A DNA stretch of 50,076 nt from an uncultured Actinomycetes bacterium (lineage in GTDB: Bacteria > Actinomycetota > Thermoleophilia > UBA2241): assembly GCA_963709345.1 (NCBI GenBank), contig CAVPVX010000005.1, positions 1 through 50,076 on the forward strand, given 5' to 3'. Below the pieces are notes generated by a model. The model made no database searches. It was not told where the DNA came from and saw only the letters and a list, made by a program, of their open reading frames with translations. Below, one piece after another: positions 9,033 through 19,915 of the stretch. Numbering within the stretch: position 1 is the first letter of the stretch; each line of letters opens with the position of its first letter. A program made the position numbers and the translations under genes.

Positions 9033-9320
9033 ACCGCGAGGACCAGCAGCCGAGAGGCGCCGCGTGCCGTCCCCTGCAAGTTGCTAAGAAGCTGCTGATT
9101 CTGCAGGGAACTGCAGGCTAGACCACGCACCGCGGGCGCCGCTATCGAGCAGGATTGACCCGTTTTGGCCTCAGAAGCACCCAAACAGCACCCTGGAGTG
9201 CGGATTTAGGAAACCTGTGCTCTATCCACTGAGCCACGAGGGCATTATGCCGATTTGCAGGAGTTTTTCCTCTGCGGCGACTCGGCAAGACTACCAGAGT
9301 TGCGAAATCTGCAGGAAACG
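9033..9320. repeat. attP-like integration site, copy 1 (homologous to 13174-13476)
   Basis: Shares blocks with copy 2 (GAGAGGCGCCGCG..GCAAGTTGCYAAGAAG..TGCTGATTCTGCAGG, the tRNA half, GCCGATTTGCAGG, AATCTGCAGGAAACG). Four YTGCAGG motifs flank the tRNA-derived core. Confidence 0.7.
9205..9243 (-). pseudogene. 5' half of tRNA-Arg(CCT), att core, copy 1
   Basis: The minus strand reads GCCCTCG TG GCTC AGTGGATA GAGC A CAGGT TTCCTAA A: acceptor 5' strand, D arm and anticodon loop with CCT. There is no 3' half or T arm. Confidence 0.8.
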
Positions 9321-9497
9321 TGCGGCGGGACCGGCGGCGCGGTGGTCAGAGCAGGTGAACGCGCAGGCCAAGAGCGGCTGCGGGAAGGGTCAGTTAGGGC
9401 GGCCAGCGAGCGCCGGGCATGTGCGCGACGGTTGGGCGTCCGTGCCCCGGGGTACGCTCCGGCGCAGCAAGATCGGCCGAGGAACGGAGTCGGGTCG

Positions 9498-10193
9498 ATG
9501 AGCGACGAGCCGCAGCGGCAGTCCCAGGAGAACAGCATCGCGGACCGGGACCGGTACTCCCTGCCCCTCGACCGCTTCAACGCTTTCTCCGACGGCGTCT
9601 TCGCCATCGCCATCACGCTGCTGGTGCTCGAGATCGCCATCCCAGGCGCGGGCGTCCGCGTGCTGCCGGCGCTGCGGGAGCAGTGGCCCGAGTTCCTCGG
9701 CTACTACATCAGCTTCGCCTTCATCGGCGGCATCTGGATCGCGCACTCCGGCGTGACCAAGCTCATGAAGCTCGGGGACAGCGCATCGTTCGCGCTCAAC
9801 CTGCTGCTGCTGCTCTTCGTCGGCCTGCTGCCCTTCACAACGGCGCTCATGGTCACGCACCTGACGGGAGCGGACGCCGAGATCACGGTGCTGCTCTACG
9901 GCGCGAACCTGCTGCTCGCCTCGACCATGCTCAGCCTGCTCATCCTCTACCTCGCGCAGGAGCCGTCGCTGCTCGTCGACACCATCGCCGAAGGCACGCT
10001 GCGCAGCATCACGCGGCGGCGTTGGACGGCGATCGGGCTGAACGTGCTGGCGATCGCCGTGGCGCTCGTGGCCCCGAAGGCCGCAGTCGGCCTGTACCTC
10101 GCTGAGACGACCTTGCTGCTGGTCATCCCCTTCCTCGGTCTGCGCCGCCACCGTCGGCCGAGATCGGCCGGAAGCGGCGGTCAGAGCAAGTGA
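9498..10193 (+). CDS. TMEM175-family (DUF1211) potassium channel
   Basis: Signature RFNAFSDGVFAIAITLLVLE, W..H, LLPFTT and several TM helices. GGAG precedes ATG 9498. Confidence 0.85.
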   Translation: MSDEPQRQSQENSIADRDRYSLPLDRFNAFSDGVFAIAITLLVLEIAIPGAGVRVLPALREQWPEFLGYYISFAFIGGIWIAHSGVTKLMKLGDSASFALNLLLLLFVGLLPFTTALMVTHLTGADAEITVLLYGANLLLASTMLSLLILYLAQEPSLLVDTIAEGTLRSITRRRWTAIGLNVLAIAVALVAPKAAVGLYLAETTLLLVIPFLGLRRHRRPRSAGSGGQSK

Positions 10194-10212
10194 TCGAGAA
10201 GCACCGAAAGGG

Positions 10213-10914
10213 CTAGCGGCGGCGAGTGGCGAGCGCGACGACGTTGTCGAAACTGGGTCCAGCATCCTCGGCGACCTTCTCTTCGGCGCGCGCCAGTGCC
10301 GCGCGCGTGACCTCGTCGAGCCCCGCCACCGCTCTCGCGCGCGCGGCCGTCGTGAGCCGCACGCAGTGCCTGAGCGTGGTCGCCGGGTCGGAGTGCCCGA
10401 GCCACTCCTGCGCCTGCTTCACGCCGTAGGTTTCGTACACCCAGGTGCCGAACGAGTCGCGCAGGCCGTGGATCGGCAGGTGCGGGTCGATCCTCTGGCG
10501 GGCGACCCAGCTCCACCACTGGCTCTTGACGGTGGAGGGCGCCATCTGCGTGCCCTCCTTCTTGGGGACGACGCGGCCGGCCTCGTTCCAGGCCGGGCCC
10601 TGGGCCAGGCGGTACTCCTTCTGTGCCGCGAGCCAGACGCGCAGGCGGTCGGGGTCGATGGAGCGGTGCGCCTCGAGCTCGGCGATCCATGTCTCTAACA
10701 GTCGCTCGGCGGCCTTCTTGCCCTTCGCCTCGACGACCTTGGTGGTCTTCGGGTACTTCTGCTTCTGCCTGCCCTTCGAGTCGAGCACTGGCTGCCTGTC
10801 CCGGTCGAACGCAGGCTCGGGAGGCAGGTTCACCCACAGCTGCCAGCGGCCGCGCACGGGGACGCCGTTCTTCTTCACGGGGTAGACGAAGCCGGTGAGG
10901 CGGAAGGGGTCCAT
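10213..10914 (-). pseudogene. Phage-type tyrosine integrase remnant 1 (internal deletion; catalytic Tyr changed to Cys)
   Basis: An N-terminal arm-binding-like region (GRWQLWVNL..KKAAERLL) is joined near 10650 directly to box II (HGLRDSFGTW..QEWLGHSDPATTLRHC). Box I and the core-binding domain are missing. Confidence 0.75.
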
Positions 10915-11086
10915 GGCGCGACACTATCGCGCCGGTCGGAGGGAATCTGCGCCCGGCCGACTCGCGCCGGCCGCTCTCGCTTCCGCGCCTCGTGGGGGAA
11001 AGGCAGTCTGCCTTTCGCGCACCTTCAGGCTCGTGATAGCGTCATATGCAGAAAGCGGGAGTCTGTGTCGATGACAAGCACAGACT

Positions 11087-11104
11087 GTCTAATTGTTGTT
11101 AGCC
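11087..11104 (+). other. attI-like site at the start of the cassette array
   Basis: GTCTAAT-TGTT-GTTAGCC is an imperfect L box plus an R box. GTTAGCC is the exact complement of GGCTAAC (R'') at the end of cassette 1. No attC hairpin precedes it. Confidence 0.5.
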
Positions 11105-11191
11105 CCAACACCCCCATCGTCATCTGTGAGCCGCTGGCCCGCGGCGGTACAATGAAGGCACTTGCTTGGGCCACCGGGAGGTGTGACGCGA

Positions 11192-11416
11192 ATGACCATC
11201 GACGAGTTGCGCCGCGAGGCCCTCGGCCTCGACCTCTCCAGTCGTGCCCGTCTCGCGCACGAGCTGATCAACAGCCTCGATGACCTCTCCGAAGCCGAGA
11301 TCGAGCAGCTCTGGCTCGAGGAGTCGCAGCGGCGCCTCGAAGAGGTCGCGTCCGGCGCCGTCGAGACCGTGAGCGCCGAAGAGGCCCTGGCCAAGGCGCG
11401 CGCCGCTCGCCGATGA
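11192..11416 (+). CDS. Putative addiction-module antitoxin (TIGR02574-like)
   Basis: EALGLDLSSRARLAHELINSLD..W..E..RRLEE..SG. GGAGG RBS, a TACAAT -10 at 11148-11153, and an ATGA overlap with the toxin. Confidence 0.8.
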   Translation: MTIDELRREALGLDLSSRARLAHELINSLDDLSEAEIEQLWLEESQRRLEEVASGAVETVSAEEALAKARAARR

Positions 11417-11709
11417 GCCGCTCTCTGCGGCTCCACCCGGCAGCCCAGCGTGAACTCGACGAGTCAGCTGCCTACTACGACGCCGAGAGCCCGGGCCTCG
11501 GCAGCGCCTTCCTCAGCGAGTTCGAGCACGCGCTGCAGCAGATCCGTGCGTTTCCCGAGGCGGCGCCCGTGGGCCTCGGGTCGGTGCGCGTCCGCGTCCT
11601 TGTAGCGTTTCCCTACTCGCTGCACTACGCGCTGCTCGGCGACGCCGTCCTCGTGCTCTCCCTGGCGCACCACAGCAGGCGACCTTTCTACTGGCGTGAT
11701 AGGCAGTAG
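11413..11709 (+). CDS. RelE/ParE-family toxin
   Basis: LHPAAQREL.E...YYD...PGLG..F, FPYSL.Y and LAHHSRRP.YWR.R; paired with the upstream antitoxin. Confidence 0.85.
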   Translation: MSRSLRLHPAAQRELDESAAYYDAESPGLGSAFLSEFEHALQQIRAFPEAAPVGLGSVRVRVLVAFPYSLHYALLGDAVLVLSLAHHSRRPFYWRDRQ

Positions 11710-11719
11710 GCCGGTGGGT

Positions 11720-11809
11720 GGCTAACAAGCGGATCAAGCTGGCTCGCCGCAGCGCCGGCGGCTTCAAGGGAAGCCGCGGCGCTCGCAGCCTATCCGCGGT
11801 GCGTTGACT
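11720..11809 (+). other. attC site 1 (90 bp)
   Basis: R'' GGCTAAC, then AAGCG, L'' GATCAAGC with an extra C, a central GCGGCTTC/GAAGCCGC hairpin, L' GCCTATC and R' GTTGACT. Confidence 0.8.
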
Positions 11810-11855
11810 AGGTTCAGTCCCCCAGCGTTCGCTGTTGCCGGTACGTGGTGAGGAG

Positions 11856-11885
11856 CGTACACTCTTCTGTACAGTAACCTGTACC
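11856..11885 (+). promoter_or_regulatory. Phd/YefM-type operator with overlapping -10
   Basis: CGTACA (11856), TGTACA (11868) and TGTACC (11880) occur at exact 12-bp spacing upstream of the antitoxin RBS. TACACT lies at 11858-11863. Confidence 0.65.
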
Positions 11886-11896
11886 AGGAGGCCGTG

Positions 11897-12175
11897 ATGC
11901 AGCCCCTCAGGCTCGATGAGGATATCCGCCCACTGTCCGAGTTCCGCGCCGGCGTCGCTGGCTTCGTGCGCCGCGTCAGCGAGACCCGCCGCCCGCTGCT
12001 GCTTACCCAGCACGGCCGCGGCGTCGCCGTGCTCGTCGACGTGCGCGAGTTCGAGGCGATGCGCGAGCGCCTGGCCCTGTTCGAGGACGTCACCGCCGCC
12101 GAGGCCGACGTCGCCGCCGGGCGCCTCACGTCCCACGACGAGGCCAGGGCCCGCGTCCTTGGGGACCTCGGGTAG
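11897..12175 (+). CDS. Phd/YefM-family antitoxin
   Basis: DIRPLSEFRA..RRPLLLTQHGRGVAVL. AGGAGG RBS. Confidence 0.85.
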   Translation: MQPLRLDEDIRPLSEFRAGVAGFVRRVSETRRPLLLTQHGRGVAVLVDVREFEAMRERLALFEDVTAAEADVAAGRLTSHDEARARVLGDLG

Positions 12176-13008
12176 TGAGGCTCGCCTGGACCGACCGGGC
12201 GCTCGGGCGCGTGCGCGAGACGGCGCGCCATATCGCCGCCGACGATCCCGCCGCCGCGGTGCGCTGGGCGGAGGGACTCTTCGACGCGGTCGGGCGTCTC
12301 GCCGACTTCCCCGAAAGCGGGCGCCTCGCGCCGGAACTCGAGGACCGAGGCGTGCGCGAGCTCGTCTACGGCGCCTACCGCGTCTTCTACCGCATCGACG
12401 CAGGCACGGTCCTCATCCTCACCGTCAGGCACGCAAGCCAACTGGTCCGCGAGGACGAGGTCGATCAAGGACGAGCCGAACAAGCCATTCCAGCGGACGC
12501 GCTGAATTCAGACGTTGGATGGAAGGCAAGGGTTTCGATGCAGCAAGTCGTCAGTGTCGAGTCGCTATGGTCCGCATTTCTGTCAGCGCACCCGGAACTC
12601 GTCAGTCAGGACGACGTCTACTCGGCGTGGCACTTCTGCGACAACAAGTCAGACGCTGAGGAGTTGGCGCAGCTTGTCGTTGCCGGGGTCAAGCGCGCTA
12701 CCGCCGGCGACCTGTGGTCATATGAGGCAGAAGGGGAGCCACTTCCACGGCCGGGCGATTTCAGCGTGATCACCGATTGGGACGGCAACGCGCGCTGCAT
12801 CATCCGCACCGTGTCAGTCGAGGTCGTCGCATTCCAAGATGTGAGCGACCTTTTCGCTTCAACGGAGGGTGAGGGCGACGGGTCGCTCGCGTACTGGCGC
12901 GAGGCGCATTGGGCGGCGTTCAGCCGCTCGCTTTCGGGAATCGGTCGTGAGCCTTCACTGGACATGCCGGTCGTGTGCGAGGTCTTCGAGGTCGTCTTCG
13001 CGGGGTGA
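12175..13008 (+). CDS. RelE/ParE toxin (to ~12470) reading in frame through attC2 into the ASCH domain
   Basis: MRLAWT..A, LADFPESGR.APE, RELVYGAYRVFYR and ILTVRHA, with no stop before the ASCH region. Confidence 0.7.
   Translation: MRLAWTDRALGRVRETARHIAADDPAAAVRWAEGLFDAVGRLADFPESGRLAPELEDRGVRELVYGAYRVFYRIDAGTVLILTVRHASQLVREDEVDQGRAEQAIPADALNSDVGWKARVSMQQVVSVESLWSAFLSAHPELVSQDDVYSAWHFCDNKSDAEELAQLVVAGVKRATAGDLWSYEAEGEPLPRPGDFSVITDWDGNARCIIRTVSVEVVAFQDVSDLFASTEGEGDGSLAYWREAHWAAFSRSLSGIGREPSLDMPVVCEVFEVVFAG
12475..12520 (+). other. attC site 2 (46 bp, minimal)
   Basis: GCCGAAC AAGCC ATTCCAGCG GACG CGCTGAAT TCAGAC GTTGGAT matches the canonical R''-5bp-L''(extra C)..L'-6bp-R' layout. Confidence 0.8.
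12538..13008 (+). CDS. ASCH domain protein (own ATG within cassette 3)
   Basis: AWHFCD..A.ELAQLV.AG.KRAT, GD.SVITDWDG..RCII.T, EGEGDGSL.YWR.AH and VVCE.FEVV. Confidence 0.8.
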   Translation: MQQVVSVESLWSAFLSAHPELVSQDDVYSAWHFCDNKSDAEELAQLVVAGVKRATAGDLWSYEAEGEPLPRPGDFSVITDWDGNARCIIRTVSVEVVAFQDVSDLFASTEGEGDGSLAYWREAHWAAFSRSLSGIGREPSLDMPVVCEVFEVVFAG

Positions 13009-13063
13009 TGATTCGCAACCGCCGACGTGCTGCGAGATTCCGGGACGCAACTTGGCCGGTCCC

Positions 13064-13150
13064 ATCCAGCAAGCGCATCGAGCTGAAGGCGTCAGGCCAG
13101 AATCATCCCGAAGCGCATGTGCCGCAGCTCACGCGCAAAACACGCTAGCT
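13064..13150 (+). other. attC site 3 (variant core AGC/GCT)
   Basis: ATCCAGC AAGCG CATCGAGCTG .. CAGCTCACGCGC AAAACAC GCTAGCT. CCATCCAGC complements the cassette start GTTGGATGG (12514) at 8 of 9 positions. Confidence 0.7.
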
Positions 13151-13173
13151 GGAAGGGGAATCCGCCGGCCACC

Positions 13174-13476
13174 GCCGCGACAGCTAGCAGGCGAGAGGCG
13201 CCGCGGGTCGTCCCCGGCAAGTTGCCAAGAAGGTTGCTGATTCTGCAGGAGACTGCAGGCTCGAACAGGCTCTCGGCGCCGGCGGACTGTCGCCAAACGA
13301 CCCCAAATCACCCTCGAAGTACCCCGATCGGCACCCCAGGCTGCGGATTTAGGAAACCTGTGCTCTATCCACTGAGCTACGAGGGCATTGTGCCGATTTG
13401 CAGGGATTTCTCCGCTGCGGCACTTCGGCAAGAATACCACGAGTTGCGAAGAAGTTGCTGAAATCTGCAGGAAACG
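13174..13476. repeat. attP-like integration site, copy 2
   Basis: Homologous to 9033-9320. A ~30-bp direct repeat AGTTGCNAAGAAG(G)TTGCTGA(A)WTCTGCAGG lies at 13220-13249 and 13442-13471, on both sides of the tRNA half. Confidence 0.7.
13348..13386 (-). pseudogene. 5' half of tRNA-Arg(CCT), att core, copy 2
   Basis: The minus strand reads GCCCTCGTAGCTCAGTGGATAGAGCACAGGTTTCCTAAA, and similarity to tRNA stops right after the anticodon loop. Confidence 0.8.
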
Positions 13477-14263
13477 CCTCGCCAGCAAGCCCGTGCTTCC
13501 ACAGATAGGCGATGCTGGCCAGCGCCGTTCCAACCTCGCCATGTTCAAGGATTACCGTAGCCTCCGCTCTTCTGGCAACGGTAAGCACGGTGAGGGCGTC
13601 GACGATCCCGTCACCGAGGCAGCGATGAGGATCTCGCTCCTCGGTTGGGCCGGCGTTGCTATGCAGATGAACGTGCACGAGCCTCGCTCGAGGATTCGTC
13701 AGGAACGGGTCCAGAGTGCCGCAGATGGCAGCATGACCCGTGTCGAGCACCAACCCGATCTCGCCGAGGTCGAGGTCTCCAGGTGCGGTGAACCTCCATG
13801 CAGCGCCCGTCGTCATGTTCTCGACCGCCACCTGCACGCCACTCGACGCCTGGACTTCCTCCAGGTCACGCAGGCTTCGCTCAAGCGCTCGCCGCCCCGC
13901 GACACATGGAACGCCCTGTGATCCTCGGTCAGGATGCACGACGTAGCATTGAGCGCCGATCGCAGCAGCTGCCTCAGCATGACGGCGATGGGCTTCAATC
14001 GTGCGATGCCTCTCCGACTCCTCGGGGCTGGCCGGGTCAAACGCGGGCCCGTAGGGACCATGGACGGTGAACGCAAGGCCACTCTCACGCGCCGCGCGAC
14101 GGTTATCGGGCGAGAGCAGCGTGTGGAGGCCGACCGCGTCGACCTCAACCAGACTGCTCCAGCGCGCAAGCAGCATCAGCGCCTCGCGTAGTTGCTTCTC
14201 AGCGTAGACCTGGCTCGGCAGTCCGATGTCGGCCGGCAGCCTCTGTCCGTCGGCGAGAGGCAT
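13349..14263 (-). CDS. Sugar phosphate isomerase/epimerase (xylose-isomerase-like TIM barrel); 3' end runs into the att repeat
   Basis: Motifs TVHGP, VVHP, VAVENM, LDTGHA, HVHLHSN..DPH..LGDG and VILE. Confidence 0.75.
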   Translation of the reverse strand: MPLADGQRLPADIGLPSQVYAEKQLREALMLLARWSSLVEVDAVGLHTLLSPDNRRAARESGLAFTVHGPYGPAFDPASPEESERHRTIEAHRRHAEAAAAIGAQCYVVHPDRGSQGVPCVAGRRALERSLRDLEEVQASSGVQVAVENMTTGAAWRFTAPGDLDLGEIGLVLDTGHAAICGTLDPFLTNPRARLVHVHLHSNAGPTEERDPHRCLGDGIVDALTVLTVARRAEATVILEHGEVGTALASIAYLWKHGLAGEAFPADFSNFFATRGILAEVPQRRNPCKSAQCPRSSVDRAQVS

Positions 14264-15773: not shown

Positions 15774-16156
15774 CTACTGACGCCTGCTTTCGAGCGAGAC
15801 GACGTTGTCGAGCACGGGCTGCGCATCCTCGGCGGCCTTCTCCTCGGCGACTTCGAGTGCCGCCCGCGTCACCTCGTCGAGCCCGGCGACTGCCTTCGCC
15901 CGCGCTGCCGTAGTGAGCCGCACGTAGTGCCTGAGCGTGGTCGCCGGGTCGGAGTGCCCGAGCCACTCCTGCGCCTGCTTGACGCCGTACTCCTCGTAGA
16001 CCCAGGTACCGAAGGGGTCGCGCAGGCCGCGGATCGGCAGGTGCGGGTCGATCCTCTGCCGCGCCACCCAGTTCCACCAGTGGCTCTTCAGGGTCGAGGG
16101 CGCCATCTGGGTGCCCTCCTTCTTGGGGACGACGCGAGCGGCCTCGTTCCACGCAC
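15774..16156 (-). pseudogene. Tyrosine integrase remnant 2 (C-terminal only; box II His changed to Arg)
   Basis: AWNEAARVVPKKEGTQMAPST..IRGLRDPFGTW..LGHSDPATTLRHY; nearly identical to the C-terminus of remnant 1. Confidence 0.75.
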
Positions 16157-16212
16157 GCCCTTCGCGAGACAGTGCTCCTTCAGAGCGGAGAGGCAGGCGG
16201 CTAGCCACCTCA

Positions 16213-16242
16213 TTGACACCCCCCCCCAAAAAAGTCTAGGTT
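16213..16242 (+). promoter_or_regulatory. Sigma70-type promoter with a homopolymer spacer
   Basis: TTGACA-N18-TAGGTT; the spacer contains C9 and A6 runs. Confidence 0.55.
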
Positions 16243-16304
16243 GGCTGGGGGGAGAACACCCACACCGAGGGGATGCTGCCGACGCGGCGGCGGGAAGTGG
16301 AGCC

Positions 16305-19274
16305 ATGGCCGGATCTGGGGCAAGCAGTGATCCGAAGGCGGCCGGTGCTGTGCCTCTGAACCCTACCTTCGGCGACTGGCTTGAGCGTCGCGGCGCGTCG
16401 GAAAAGGGTGAGGCGGGTCCGCGGGACGGAGCACGCGGCGCAGGCGACCTGCCCTGCGTGCTGGTCGTGGACGACGAGACCGAGATCACCGCCTCCGTCG
16501 CTGAACTGCTGCGCGACGAGTACGCGGTTTTGACGGCGAGTTCAGCCGACGAGGCGCTGGCACTCCTCGAGGAGCACGCCGTCGCGGCGATCCTCACCGA
16601 CCAGCGCATGCCCGGCGGCAGCGGCGCCGAGCTGCTCGAGCGCGCACTCCACATCGCGCCTGAGACGACGCGCATCCTGTTCTCCGGCTACTCGGACATC
16701 AGCGTCGTGGTCGACGCCGTCAATGAAGGACAGGTCTTCCACTACCTGGCCAAGCCCTGGCGCCCCGAGGAGCTGCGGGAAGTGCTCGGGCGCGGCGTCG
16801 AGCGTCACCAGATTCTGCTCGAGAACCGGGCTCTCACCGCCGAGCGCGAGGCAGCACTGCGTGACTTGCACCAGAGCGAGGCTCACTACCGCACCCTCGC
16901 CGAAGCCTCGCCGGACATGGTCTACGTCATCGGCCATGATGACACGGTGCAGTACCTGAACCAGAGGGCGGCCGAGACGGTTCGCCGCTCCCCAGACGAA
17001 GTCGTCGGCATGCCGCGCGCCGACCTTTTCGGCGGCGCGACGGACAGCGGGATGAAGGCTGCCCTTGACGACGTCCTTCAGGCGGGAGAGCCGCGCCACT
17101 CCGAATCTGAGCTGGTCTGCCCGTCGGGGAGGACATGGATCAGCACCTGGCTCGTTCCGCTCAAGGACGTGGACGGCGCCGTGACGGCGGTGCTCGGCAT
17201 CTCGCGCGACATCAGCGAGGACAAGCGCGCCAAGGACGAACTGCGCAAGCGGGCCACGGAGATGGCTGCGCTGCACGCCCTGAGCGCGGCCGCCACGCGA
17301 AGCCTGTCGCTGGAAGGGGTCGCGTCAGAAGCCACAGCGGCGCTGGCGAAGATCATCGGGTGCGACCTGGCACTCGTCTTCATCCGGGACGGAGAGCGTC
17401 TGCTGCTGACGGGCACCGCCCCGGGGTACCGCAAGGCAGAACGCGAGGAGGCGCCCGAGCATCGCGTCGGCGAGTGCCTGTGCGGACTGGCGGTCCGGGA
17501 GGGCGCGCCCATCTACTCCCGCGACCTCTTCAGCGACGAGCGCTGCACGCTGGAGGAGTGTAAGCAGGCCGGCCTGCGCTCCTTTGCCGCCCTGCCGCTG
17601 TACACCGGCGACGAGATCATCGGCGCGGTCGGCGTGGCGTCGGAGACGGAGTGCGACTTCGAGGCGCAGGCCGCGTTCCTCGAGACGCTGGCGAGCGAGG
17701 TCGCCCTGCACGCGCACAATGCCCAGCTGTTCTCCGCGGTCGAGTGGCAGCGTGAGGCACTTCGCGAGCGCGAGGTCGCCCTTGCAAACGCGCAACGCAT
17801 CGCGCACCTCGGCAGCTGGAACTGGGACGCGGCGTCAGGGGAGATCATCTGGTCCGCGGAGGCGTGCCGGATCTTCGGGGTCGCGGCAGACACGCACCCT
17901 GCGCAGGAGGCTTTCATCGACTTCATCCACCCGGACGACCGGAGACTCATGGGGGAATGGATCTCCGCAGCTCGTGGCGGGTCGGCGCCGCCGGGCATCG
18001 AATGTCGCATTCTCCGCCCCGATGGAGAGCTTAGATGGATCTTCAGTGACGGGGAAGCCTCGTCGGAGGAGGCAGGCGCCGTCACCCGCGTCGCCGGGAC
18101 CGTGCTCGACGTCACCGAGCGCAAGCAGGCCGAGGAGATGCTGAAGGCGAGCCAAGAGCGGCTCGAGGAAGCACACCGTCTGGCGCACATTGGGATCTGG
18201 ACCTGGCGGGTCGCCGACGATACCGTCACCTGGAGCGAGGAGCTCTACCGCATCGCGGGCCGCGACCCGAGCTCGCCGGCTCCCACCTACGCCGAGCACC
18301 CCGACCTCTATGCCCCAGAGAGCTGGGACCGTCTGCAGGCGGCGGTCGCGCAGGCATGTGAGCGCGGCACAGACTACGAACTCGATCTTGAAATGATGCG
18401 CCCTGACGGCACCATCCGATGCGTGCACGTCTTCGGCGGCGCCACACGAAACGAGCGCGGAGAGGTCGAAAACCTCTACGGCACCATCCAGGACATCACC
18501 GAGCGCATGCAAGCCGAGGACGAGATCCGTCGCCTCAACGCCGAGCTCGAGGAGCGCGTCGTCCGCCGCACCGAACAGCTCGACGCGACGACCCGTGAGC
18601 TCGAGGCGTTCGCCTACTCTGTGGCCCACGATGTACGCGCGCCGCTGCGCACCATCGATGGCTTCAGCGCCATGGTGATGGAGGACGAGCGCGAGCGGCT
18701 CAGCCCGGAGGGACAGGCGGAACTCAGCCGGGTGCGCGTCGCGGCGCAGACGCTGGCGCGCCTGCTCGACGACCTCATGGGGCTCTCTCGCGTCTCACGC
18801 CACGAGCTCGTCCGCGAAGCAGTCGACCTGAGCGCCCTGGCGCGGCAGGTGGGCGAGGAGACAGCCGCGGGATCGCCGTCGCGCCGGGTCGAGCTCACCG
18901 TGCAGCCCGAGCTTGAAGCTGTCGCCGACCCGGCACTGGTGCGTCTGATCCTGCGCGAGCTCCTTCGCAACGCCTGGAAGTTCACGAGCCGGCACGAGAC
19001 CGCGTGCATCGAGGTCGGCGCGACCGAGGCCGGGGGCGAGGCCGCCTTCTATGTGCGCGACGACGGCGCCGGCTTCGATATGCGCCACGCCCAGCATCTC
19101 TTCGGCGCCTTCCAGCGCATGCACCCGGCAGGGGAGTTCGAGGGCGACGGGATCGGCCTCGCCACGGTGCAGCGGCTGGTGCGCCGGCACGGCGGCCGCG
19201 TCTGGGCCGAAGCCGAGGTCGAGAAGGGCGCGACGTTCCACTTCACGCTGCCGGAGCCGGCAACCGACGGCTAG
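16305..19274 (+). CDS. Multi-sensor histidine kinase (REC-PAS-GAF-PAS-PAS-HisKA-HATPase); exact start uncertain
   Basis: LVVDDE..TDQRMP..KPW, PAS/PAC repeats, GECLCG GAF, YSVAHDVRAPL H-box, NAWKFT, DDGAGF and GIGLA. Confidence 0.85.
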   Translation: MAGSGASSDPKAAGAVPLNPTFGDWLERRGASEKGEAGPRDGARGAGDLPCVLVVDDETEITASVAELLRDEYAVLTASSADEALALLEEHAVAAILTDQRMPGGSGAELLERALHIAPETTRILFSGYSDISVVVDAVNEGQVFHYLAKPWRPEELREVLGRGVERHQILLENRALTAEREAALRDLHQSEAHYRTLAEASPDMVYVIGHDDTVQYLNQRAAETVRRSPDEVVGMPRADLFGGATDSGMKAALDDVLQAGEPRHSESELVCPSGRTWISTWLVPLKDVDGAVTAVLGISRDISEDKRAKDELRKRATEMAALHALSAAATRSLSLEGVASEATAALAKIIGCDLALVFIRDGERLLLTGTAPGYRKAEREEAPEHRVGECLCGLAVREGAPIYSRDLFSDERCTLEECKQAGLRSFAALPLYTGDEIIGAVGVASETECDFEAQAAFLETLASEVALHAHNAQLFSAVEWQREALREREVALANAQRIAHLGSWNWDAASGEIIWSAEACRIFGVAADTHPAQEAFIDFIHPDDRRLMGEWISAARGGSAPPGIECRILRPDGELRWIFSDGEASSEEAGAVTRVAGTVLDVTERKQAEEMLKASQERLEEAHRLAHIGIWTWRVADDTVTWSEELYRIAGRDPSSPAPTYAEHPDLYAPESWDRLQAAVAQACERGTDYELDLEMMRPDGTIRCVHVFGGATRNERGEVENLYGTIQDITERMQAEDEIRRLNAELEERVVRRTEQLDATTRELEAFAYSVAHDVRAPLRTIDGFSAMVMEDERERLSPEGQAELSRVRVAAQTLARLLDDLMGLSRVSRHELVREAVDLSALARQVGEETAAGSPSRRVELTVQPELEAVADPALVRLILRELLRNAWKFTSRHETACIEVGATEAGGEAAFYVRDDGAGFDMRHAQHLFGAFQRMHPAGEFEGDGIGLATVQRLVRRHGGRVWAEAEVEKGATFHFTLPEPATDG

Positions 19275-19275
19275 C

Positions 19276-19445
19276 TATTCGAGTTCACGACGTTGTTGAC
19301 AGGTGAGGGCCTGTCCTGATCGGTTGTTGGTGTCCAAACCAAGACCGAGAGGAAGGCCCTCATGTCGCATCCTAGCGCGAGACTCGCCACGCACGGACGC
19401 CTGCTGCTCTGTGAGCGTCTCGATGAAGGCGGCTGGCGCGTCGGA
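19276..19445 (+). mobile_element. IS481-family left-end remnant
   Basis: MSHPSARLATHGRLLLCERL.EGGW from ATG 19362 resembles IS481 transposase N-termini. An end-like sequence T(A)TTCGAGTTCACGACGTTGTTGACA follows CTAG. It is fused to integrase remnant 3. Confidence 0.6.
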
Positions 19446-19915
19446 GTGGCCGAGCCACTCCTGCGCCTGCTTGACGCCGTACTCCTCGTAGACCCAGGTG
19501 GCGAAGGGGTCGCGCAGCCCGTGGATCGGCAGGTGCGGGTCGATCCTCTGGCGGGCGACCCAGCTCCACCACTGGCTCTTGACGGTGGAGGGCGCCATCT
19601 GCGTGCCCTCCTTCTTGGGGACGACGCGAGCGGCCTCGTTCCACGCCGGGCCCTGGGCCAGGCGGTACTCCTTCTGCGCGGCGAGCCAGACGCGGCGCTC
19701 GTCGCAGGCCGCCGCGGCAGCGGCGCGGTGCGCGCCTTGCCGTTCTTCGGCGGGTACTCGAGGAGCGTGCCGTCGTCGTCCTCCTCGACGGTGCGACAGA
19801 CGGTGACGAAGCCGCGCTCGAGGTCGAGGTCCGACCAGAGGAGGCCCGCGACCTCCCCCACGCGCAGGCCGGAGAAGCCGGCGAGCACGCCGGCGGCGTG
19901 GACCAGCAGGCCGCA
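19440..19915 (-). pseudogene. Tyrosine integrase remnant 3 (box I to box II, frameshifted, no catalytic Tyr)
   Basis: SGLRVGEVAGLLWSDLDLERG.VTV..PKNGKART, a frameshift near 19722, then HGLRDPFATW..LGHSD, truncated by the IS481 piece. Confidence 0.75.

Follow-up and report, generated by a model that had tools for sequence, protein, structure and literature searches.

Introduction

Mobile integrons carried by transposons are represented by class 1 integrons on Tn402-like elements and class 2 integrons on Tn7, while Treponema denticola is an example of the layout known as the 'inverted integrase' integron. Actinomycetes also harbor integrative elements that target tRNA genes through tyrosine integrases, e.g., pSAM2; the tRNA sublocations of integrative elements are reportedly covered by Williams (2002). 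The locus described here lies in the window, i.e., the entire contig C5 (50,076 nt) of the host genome G000 (3.11 Mb, 69% G+C, 11 contigs), and consists of three gene cassettes opening at an attI site, beside which stands a pseudogene of a phage-type tyrosine integrase. The array is real but partly decayed, and its own gene for the integron integrase (intI, encoding IntI) has been lost. It is probably an attI-bearing cluster of attC sites lacking intI (CALIN), carried by an integrative element of tRNA-Arg(CCT) and serviced in trans by the IntI encoded on another contig, C7.

CALIN is the IntegronFinder term for attC clusters without intI; Cury et al. detected intI pseudogenes near only 15 of 279 CALINs (PMC4889954). 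For complete genomes of Actinobacteria, Neron et al. 2022 list no complete integron, one In0 and a few CALINs (PMC9024848); a review names Actinobacteriota among the phyla with integrons (PMC8618304), and a 2026 permafrost study speaks of a virtual absence of integrons in metagenome-assembled genomes (MAGs) of Actinomycetota, its methods naming the 'inverted integrase' layout (PMC13323075). No published description of an intI-less attI array as the cargo of a tRNA island was found in a search that had subscription journals and supplements outside its reach. In the following, C1, C2, C7 and C11 are other contigs of the host genome, L numbers designate loci from related genomes (L009 to L012 being from the host genome), and G042 is the genome of L028 and L047.

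The attI site and the integron integrase

IntI was recognized by the NCBIfam model TIGR02249, which includes the IntI-specific extra domain, at a cut-off of 265 bits. The host genome contains eight matches to this model, none of which is on the contig of the window; a single gene exceeds the cut-off, the canonical intI at C7:428081-429022 (463.9 bits). It belongs to a complete integron (C7:428081-432000; L009/L010) in which intI is co-directional with the cassettes, attI follows it, and four attC sites follow attI. Such an integron, with intI adjoining attI and cassettes, is absent from the window and present on C7. Over 125 nt, the window stretch 10988-11112 shares 91% identity with the 3' end of this intI plus its attI (C7:429019-429143, given as the site right behind the canonical intI); ~49 nt of the intI 3' coding end are kept in the window at 10988-11036 while the rest of the gene is gone, and in both copies GTTAGCC comes 62 nt after the intI stop codon.

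Eight related attI copies were compared, namely those linked to intI (C7 and L019), those linked to a phage-type integrase (the window, a second locus near 768 kb on C7, L013 and L028), and those of L047 and L024. All resemble one another as far as GTT(A/G), where the similarity ends abruptly, a pattern that cassette turnover at a working attI would produce. An 8-bp inverted repeat within the attI region is kept by compensatory changes between copies, and compensatory changes are likewise seen in its repeated CAGACTG/CAGTCTG motifs. The attI-like site of the window is accordingly regarded, on the strength of its sequence, as a true attI with a predicted crossover after G11098 (G/TT). The C7 IntI would act on it in trans, inserting cassettes at 11098/11099 and excising them between attI and attC1.

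At E<=1e-30, IntI was detected in 15 of 24 genomes of the same genus and in 0 of 16 genomes from other genera of the class, and it exceeded the cut-off in 13 of the 41 genomes searched (the host genome included), all of one genus.

The attC sites

Two covariance models were built from attC sites outside the window: R1 from five sites, all on contigs other than that of the window, and R2 from 26 sites of the host genome and its relatives. The starting point was a BLAST search of the array region against the rest of the genome, which returned five homologues of attC1, one of them 1.2 kb downstream of the canonical intI. The five share the classic layout: the R'' box has AAC at its end and the R' box GTT at its start, the L''/L' stems are interrupted by a one-base bulge, and the center varies. 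In the RNAalifold consensus, R'' is paired to R' and L'' to L'. Rfam, which has no usable attC family, gave no match in the window at the gathering threshold. A strict R''...R' pattern scan of the genome gave one to six matches per contig and was dropped as too crude.

With R1, attC1 scores 90.9 bits (E 6e-22), attC3 scores 19.5 bits and is not separable from the next background match at 18.4 bits, and attC2 is not among the 122 matches at E<=10. With R2, attC1 reaches 74.5 bits and attC3 38.6 bits (E 1.7e-8), the best background match on both strands of the 50-kb window being 15.5 bits; attC2 is the last of 14 matches at E<=1 (11.7 bits, E 0.81). When the bottom-strand DNA was folded and compared to shuffled sequences, z values of -3.15 and -1.98 were obtained for attC1 and attC3. 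Both lie on the + strand 1.25 kb apart and form a cluster in the sense of two or more attC sites recognized by a structure-aware model on one strand within 4 kb.

R2 is specific: all 74 of its matches in six intI loci of same-genus relatives are downstream of intI and in the same direction, and the 19.5 kb upstream of the host genome's intI contain 0 matches. In these six relatives (L059-L064), intI is followed within 12 kb by 7 to 16 attC sites recognized by R2, and these large arrays have no phage-type integrase nearby. The integron layout of the genus is one in which intI lies upstream of attI and in the same direction as the cassettes. In the window, attC1 and attC3 are real attC sites and attC2 is a shortened, degenerate remnant, which looks like an attC whose middle has been deleted.

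The earlier note on this DNA, which was made from its letters alone, had proposed three attC folds behind an attI-like site in an actinobacterium-like genome. Two of the folds hold, the third has neither the score nor the folding energy of an attC; the attI-like site is borne out by its 91% identity to the attI that follows the canonical intI on C7. The placement of the genome agrees with the relatives of the integrase, as nearly all integrase homologues come from MAGs titled Thermoleophilia or Actinomycetota.

The cassettes

The complementary cassette ends seen earlier are present as well. Cassette 1 starts with GTTAGCC (11098-11104) and its R'' is GGCTAAC, a 7/7 complementarity; cassette 3 starts with GTTGGATGG and its R'' is CCATCCAGC, with 8/9 positions complementary; the start of cassette 2 has no complementarity to its R''. 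Whole-cassette homologues of cassette 1 that begin at the same base occur on C2, in L036 and in the intI-linked array of the relative L061. The array as a whole comprises two type II toxin-antitoxin pairs and one ASCH gene in its three cassettes.

In two metagenome runs, contigs connect 12474/12476 with 11722, so that a cassette 2 homologue with a complete attC1-like site behind it exists elsewhere. An internal deletion in the attC2 of the window would agree with this and would also have taken away the stop codon of the ParE gene of cassette 2, which has none; the open reading frame 12175-13008 runs through attC2 into the ASCH gene, giving a 277-aa ParE-ASCH frame.

Two further cassette loci were observed in the host genome. 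C2:215711-220743 (L012 3712-8743, - strand) is a larger CALIN with eight attC sites on one strand and no adjoining integrase; its cassettes are mostly toxin-antitoxin cassettes, the innermost being a 73% homologue of cassette 1 with the same start base. At C7:764923-765013 (L011 4923-5013, - strand) there is a single attC (76 bits with R2) that lies together with a 147-aa open reading frame just beyond the 3' end of an intact tRNA-Arg(CCT) gene; this may be a solo cassette outside any array.

The phage-type integrase

The integrase pseudogene is divergent from the array and lies 184 nt from the crossover. BLASTP against its intact 433-aa paralogue on C7 shows that residues 1-88 and 289-432 are kept and that 89-288 are missing in frame; in addition, the Tyr of the paralogue's TLRHYVRL, presumed from box II of the family to be at the position of the nucleophile, is replaced by Cys in the window copy. 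Judged by these lesions, the window copy is dead. The neighboring integrase is not IntI: it has no TIGR02249 match, and its intact paralogue scores 31 bits against the cut-off of 265. The integrase reads toward a co-directional tRNA-Arg(CCT) gene 0.5-4 kb downstream at 18 of the 37 related loci, and also on C7.

The broken, divergent tyrosine integrase near attI was thus correctly described in the earlier note; its placement 'in the intI position' applies only loosely, since intI in this lineage lies upstream of attI and is co-directional with the cassettes, whereas the phage-type gene is divergent.

Further C-terminal fragments of the phage-type integrase are found on the - strand at 15780-16163 and 19374-19912. 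They flank an open frame of 1115 aa (15927-19274), whose 3' part is similar to numerous histidine-kinase-like paralogues of the host genome. Decayed tRNA-Arg elements have accumulated in this region.

The proposed tRNA-Arg(CCT) element

The array is flanked by a direct repeat of ~270 nt (9034-9306 and 13175-13450). The sequence that these junction repeats have in common with intact tRNA-Arg(CCT) genes begins exactly at the anticodon loop and takes in the 5' half, the left repeat being identical to the intact genes from the loop onward; each contains a 5' half of the tRNA broken in the anticodon loop (9205-9243 and 13348-13386), and where the 3' half of the tRNA would be expected they carry a conserved element-end sequence, the X arm. 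X arms stand beside tRNA 5' halves at 13 of the 37 related loci, including L013, L019, L023, L024, L028, L031, L032, L033, L035 and L043. At 9205, a metagenome contig from run X1 continues into the true tRNA 3' half.

The complete form of the unit is found on C7 (765.9-772.8 kb), where an intact tRNA-Arg(CCT) gene (765934-766009; L011 5935-6010) is followed by a TMEM175 gene, the 433-aa integrase, attI, three attC sites, an X arm and a 5' half. This gene order returns in the window block 9205-13347, but with a dead integrase and no intact tRNA; its TMEM175 gene is 79% identical to the paralogue that adjoins the intact integrase on C7. In the window, in the C7 unit at 768 kb and in L019, ~22 nt separate the last attC from the X arm. 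The corresponding slot of L019 is occupied by a partial IntI (inside which the contig ends), attI and five attC sites, with the X arm and a 5' half behind them.

Read from these junctions, the element family duplicates the 5' half of tRNA-Arg(CCT), which means that it would supply the 5' part of the gene and its upstream region. It is proposed that a small integrative element targets the anticodon loop of tRNA-Arg(CCT) and provides the tRNA 5' half; that its remnant at 9205-13347 would comprise, in order, the tRNA 5' half, the TMEM175 gene, the phage-type integrase, attI, the cassettes and the X arm; and that the phage-type integrase would have moved this whole platform between tRNA-Arg sites. 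We infer both this past mobility and the servicing of the platform in trans by the C7 IntI. Of the two origins offered by the earlier note, capture of an IntI-less array by a tRNA-targeting element is essentially borne out, the block being bounded by junctions that carry the tRNA-Arg(CCT) 5' half. The features of the locus are collected in Table 1.

Table 1. Features of the proposed element remnant, its cassette array and the adjoining sequence in the window
Feature	Position	Strand	Remarks
X arm, left part of junction repeat R(a)	9034-9204	+	belongs to whatever adjoins on the left
tRNA-Arg(CCT) anticodon loop and 5' half (~9205-9243) with ~60 nt of upstream region	9205-9306	-	putative left end of element remnant
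TMEM175-family membrane protein gene, putative element cargo	9498-10193	+	Pfam PF06736, E 7.7e-23
Phage-type tyrosine integrase pseudogene	10213-10914	-	Pfam PF00589 (Phage_integrase), C-terminal part only
attI region	10988-11104	+	intI 3' remnant (10988-11036), conserved inverted repeats, R box GTTAGCC (11098-11104)
Cassette 1: Unstab_antitox antitoxin (11192-11416), ParE toxin (11413-11709), attC1 (11718-11811)	11099-11803	+	Pfam and covariance models
Cassette 2: PhdYefM antitoxin (11894-12175), ParE from 12175, degenerate attC2 (12473-12522)	11804-12514	+	Pfam; toxin-antitoxin pair from 11894 to about 12470
Cassette 3: ASCH-domain gene (12538-13008), attC3 (13062-13152)	12515-13144	+	Pfam PF04266, E 1.8e-22
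Junction repeat R(b), made up of the X arm (13175-13347) and, at 13348-13450, the anticodon loop and 5' half of tRNA-Arg with its upstream region	13175-13450	+	putative right end of element remnant
Xylose-isomerase-like TIM-barrel gene, outside the unit	13349-14263	-	Pfam

No sigma-70-like site was detected when 10850-13500 was scanned for promoters, and the single terminator-like site in the same interval is within the expectation from shuffled sequences. Elsewhere in the host genome, ARAGORN calls a tRNA-Pyl (CTA) at C11:14991-15063 and a tRNA-SeC (TCA) at C1:120215-120312.

The window takes up one complete contig (50 kb) of a metagenome assembly in 11 contigs, and attC, attI, integrase and R-junction repeats are present on several contigs; the arrangement could in principle be an assembly chimera joined through these repeated attC/attI or integrase sequences. 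This is extremely unlikely, as C7 and independent assemblies show diverged versions of the same junctions. Sequencing data were available as Logan contigs for all of 20 runs, the best of which shared 0.19 of the sampled words with the window, and four (X1-X4) were examined. In X1, contigs with zero to two differences cover 10846-11030, 11152-11404 and 12259-12474, none bridging the array; within the partial coverage of X1-X4 (shares <=0.19), no joint across the R repeats was seen and no contig spans the array.

Recurrence of the integrase-attI junction in related genomes

The junction between integrase and attI is common to the window, C7 768 kb and, directly, three of the 37 related loci (L013, L028 and L031), the copies being 73-84% identical; in L024, attI is ~730 nt from a 5'-truncated integrase. 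Intact integrase homologues adjoin attI/attC arrays at C7 768 kb, L013 and L028, and most homologues have neither attI nor attC: in 12 other integrase copies, the shared upstream sequence ends after ~40 nt, beyond which they diverge, and there is no attI. G042 has two integrase-linked arrays, with attI and four attC sites at L028 and attI and two attC sites at L047.

Such a conserved junction (with L024 close to it), the arrays of G042 in a genome without IntI above the cut-off, and the CAGACTG/CAGTCTG repeats of attI, to which some protein could bind, might be taken to suggest that the phage-type tyrosine integrase is itself the recombinase of the attI/attC system, or, in a bolder version, that it has this role in hosts without IntI, e.g., G042. 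This proposal is very unlikely to be correct. The attI of the window carries an intI remnant and is 91% identical to the attI of a canonical IntI in the same genome; the intact integrase is far below the IntI cut-off and the window copy is dead; the integrase family is tied to tRNA-Arg(CCT), as seen at 18 of 37 loci, and occurs in the 12 related copies without attI; and the six relatives maintain large arrays after IntI with no phage-type integrase in the vicinity. The attI-adjoining integrases also form no clade. In a tree of integrase 5' ends (19 rows, 303 columns; rows with <230 aligned bases, i.e., L018, L024, L027, L040 and the second piece of L026, were excluded) the attI-adjoining copies do not cluster and require five changes, no better than shuffled labels; since the tree did not resolve, it supports neither one nor several capture events. 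The suggestion in the earlier note of a cassette system linked to a different recombinase finds no support in view of the C7 IntI, the intI stub, the 31-bit score of the intact integrase, and the many homologues without attI or attC.

An origin of CALINs by loss of intI or by rearrangement has been proposed (PMC8618304, PMC4889954), and a rearrangement or deletion that split the cassettes from intI would leave an ordinary displaced array, lying among island fragments by chance and never having been cargo. The abundance of integrase fragments (10219-10914, 15780-16163 and 19374-19912) would favor such recombination, and the host genome does have a CALIN with no link to an integrase, that of eight attC sites on C2. 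The displaced array is nonetheless unlikely, as diverged copies (73-84% identity) in the host genome and three other MAGs have the same integrase-side junction and the same spacing between the last attC and the X arm; this recurrence fits inheritance as one unit bounded by the element ends. The earlier note had reserved this explanation for the case that a canonical IntI was present elsewhere in the genome and that intact homologues of the integrase were never neighbors of attC arrays; the former is so, but intact homologues do adjoin arrays (C7 768 kb, L013 and L028).

For the CALIN carried by a tRNA-Arg(CCT) element, the simplest history would begin with an integron of this lineage lying in the cargo region of a tRNA-Arg element; a deletion would then have removed intI down to its last ~49 nt and brought attI beside the divergent integrase, and the derived element, with attI beside the integrase and without intI, would have spread. 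A more far-reaching proposal is that of a satellite integron, in which tRNA-Arg(CCT) elements use the intI-less attI platform as a working cargo module, the host IntI gathering cassettes and the phage-type integrase carrying them between genomes; this is considered possible yet doubtful.

Assessment of the proposed element-borne array

Several observations weigh against an element-borne array that is serviced in trans. With regard to the element, ARAGORN finds no intact tRNA in the window, its tRNA-like stretches being 5' halves only; the left junction is of the arm plus 5' half type, which puts the element amid decayed copies, and the limits of the window element (9205-13347) are suggested by analogy with C7. 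Replacement of the 5' rather than the 3' half is also unusual among tRNA-targeting elements. With regard to the attC sites, the seed sites of R1 and R2 were found by similarity to attC1, which tunes both models to the attC type of the genus; the fold of attC2 is no better than that of its shuffles (z about 0), and the R' of attC3 reads GCTAGCT, with GCT at the crossover instead of GTT. With regard to the recombinase, G042 contains arrays but no IntI above the cut-off (best 74.9 bits; the completeness of this genome is not given), and the action of IntI on the attI of the window, as well as excision of the element, are predictions from the letters of the locus.

With its integrase dead, attC2 degenerate and attC3 without GTT, the window copy is immobile and largely frozen; cassette 1 and the attI site are the only parts that still seem competent, and the array may be a frozen relic rather than a working platform.

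Significance

The genus is an Actinomycetota genus with IntI, after which as many as 16 attC sites lie within 12 kb, although integrons are treated as nearly absent from the phylum. An intI-less attI with its cassettes would here have become the cargo of a tRNA-Arg island, in a layout that is kept in several genomes. If these platforms still take up cassettes through the IntI of the host, the known ways in which cassette arrays spread would be widened, and a natural system would be provided for the study of attI function in trans; if they do not work, the window is a clear, datable example of CALIN formation. A satellite integron, if real, would add a mobilizing route for integron platforms besides transposons and plasmids, and this in a phylum nearly without integrons.

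Comparison with known systems

The window resembles a CALIN in that two or more attC sites share a strand, intI is missing from the vicinity, the cassettes are few and rich in toxin-antitoxin pairs, and an IntI is encoded elsewhere in the genome; it differs in that it keeps an attI with an intI stub of ~49 nt, is bounded by the ends of a tRNA-Arg element, and has a layout that recurs in several genomes. Sedentary chromosomal 'inverted integrase' integrons are matched by the genus, which has homogeneous, genus-specific attC sites and a co-directional intI with attI after its 3' end; the window copy, however, is without intI, and the host is actinobacterial (Thermoleophilia-related). As in transposon-borne integrons, the platform would have been moved by the recombination machinery of another element; those integrons keep intI, whereas the vehicle in the window would be a tRNA-aimed tyrosine-integrase island and the platform would depend on an IntI encoded elsewhere. 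With tRNA-targeting islands, the locus shares a tyrosine integrase, an apparent anticodon-loop crossover, ends marked by repeats of a tRNA fragment, and tandem decayed copies, and, in relatives, a tRNA gene beside the integrase; unlike these islands, the family in the window repeats the 5' half of the tRNA, and would supply the 5' portion of the gene with its upstream region, and the cargo it carries is an attI with cassettes.

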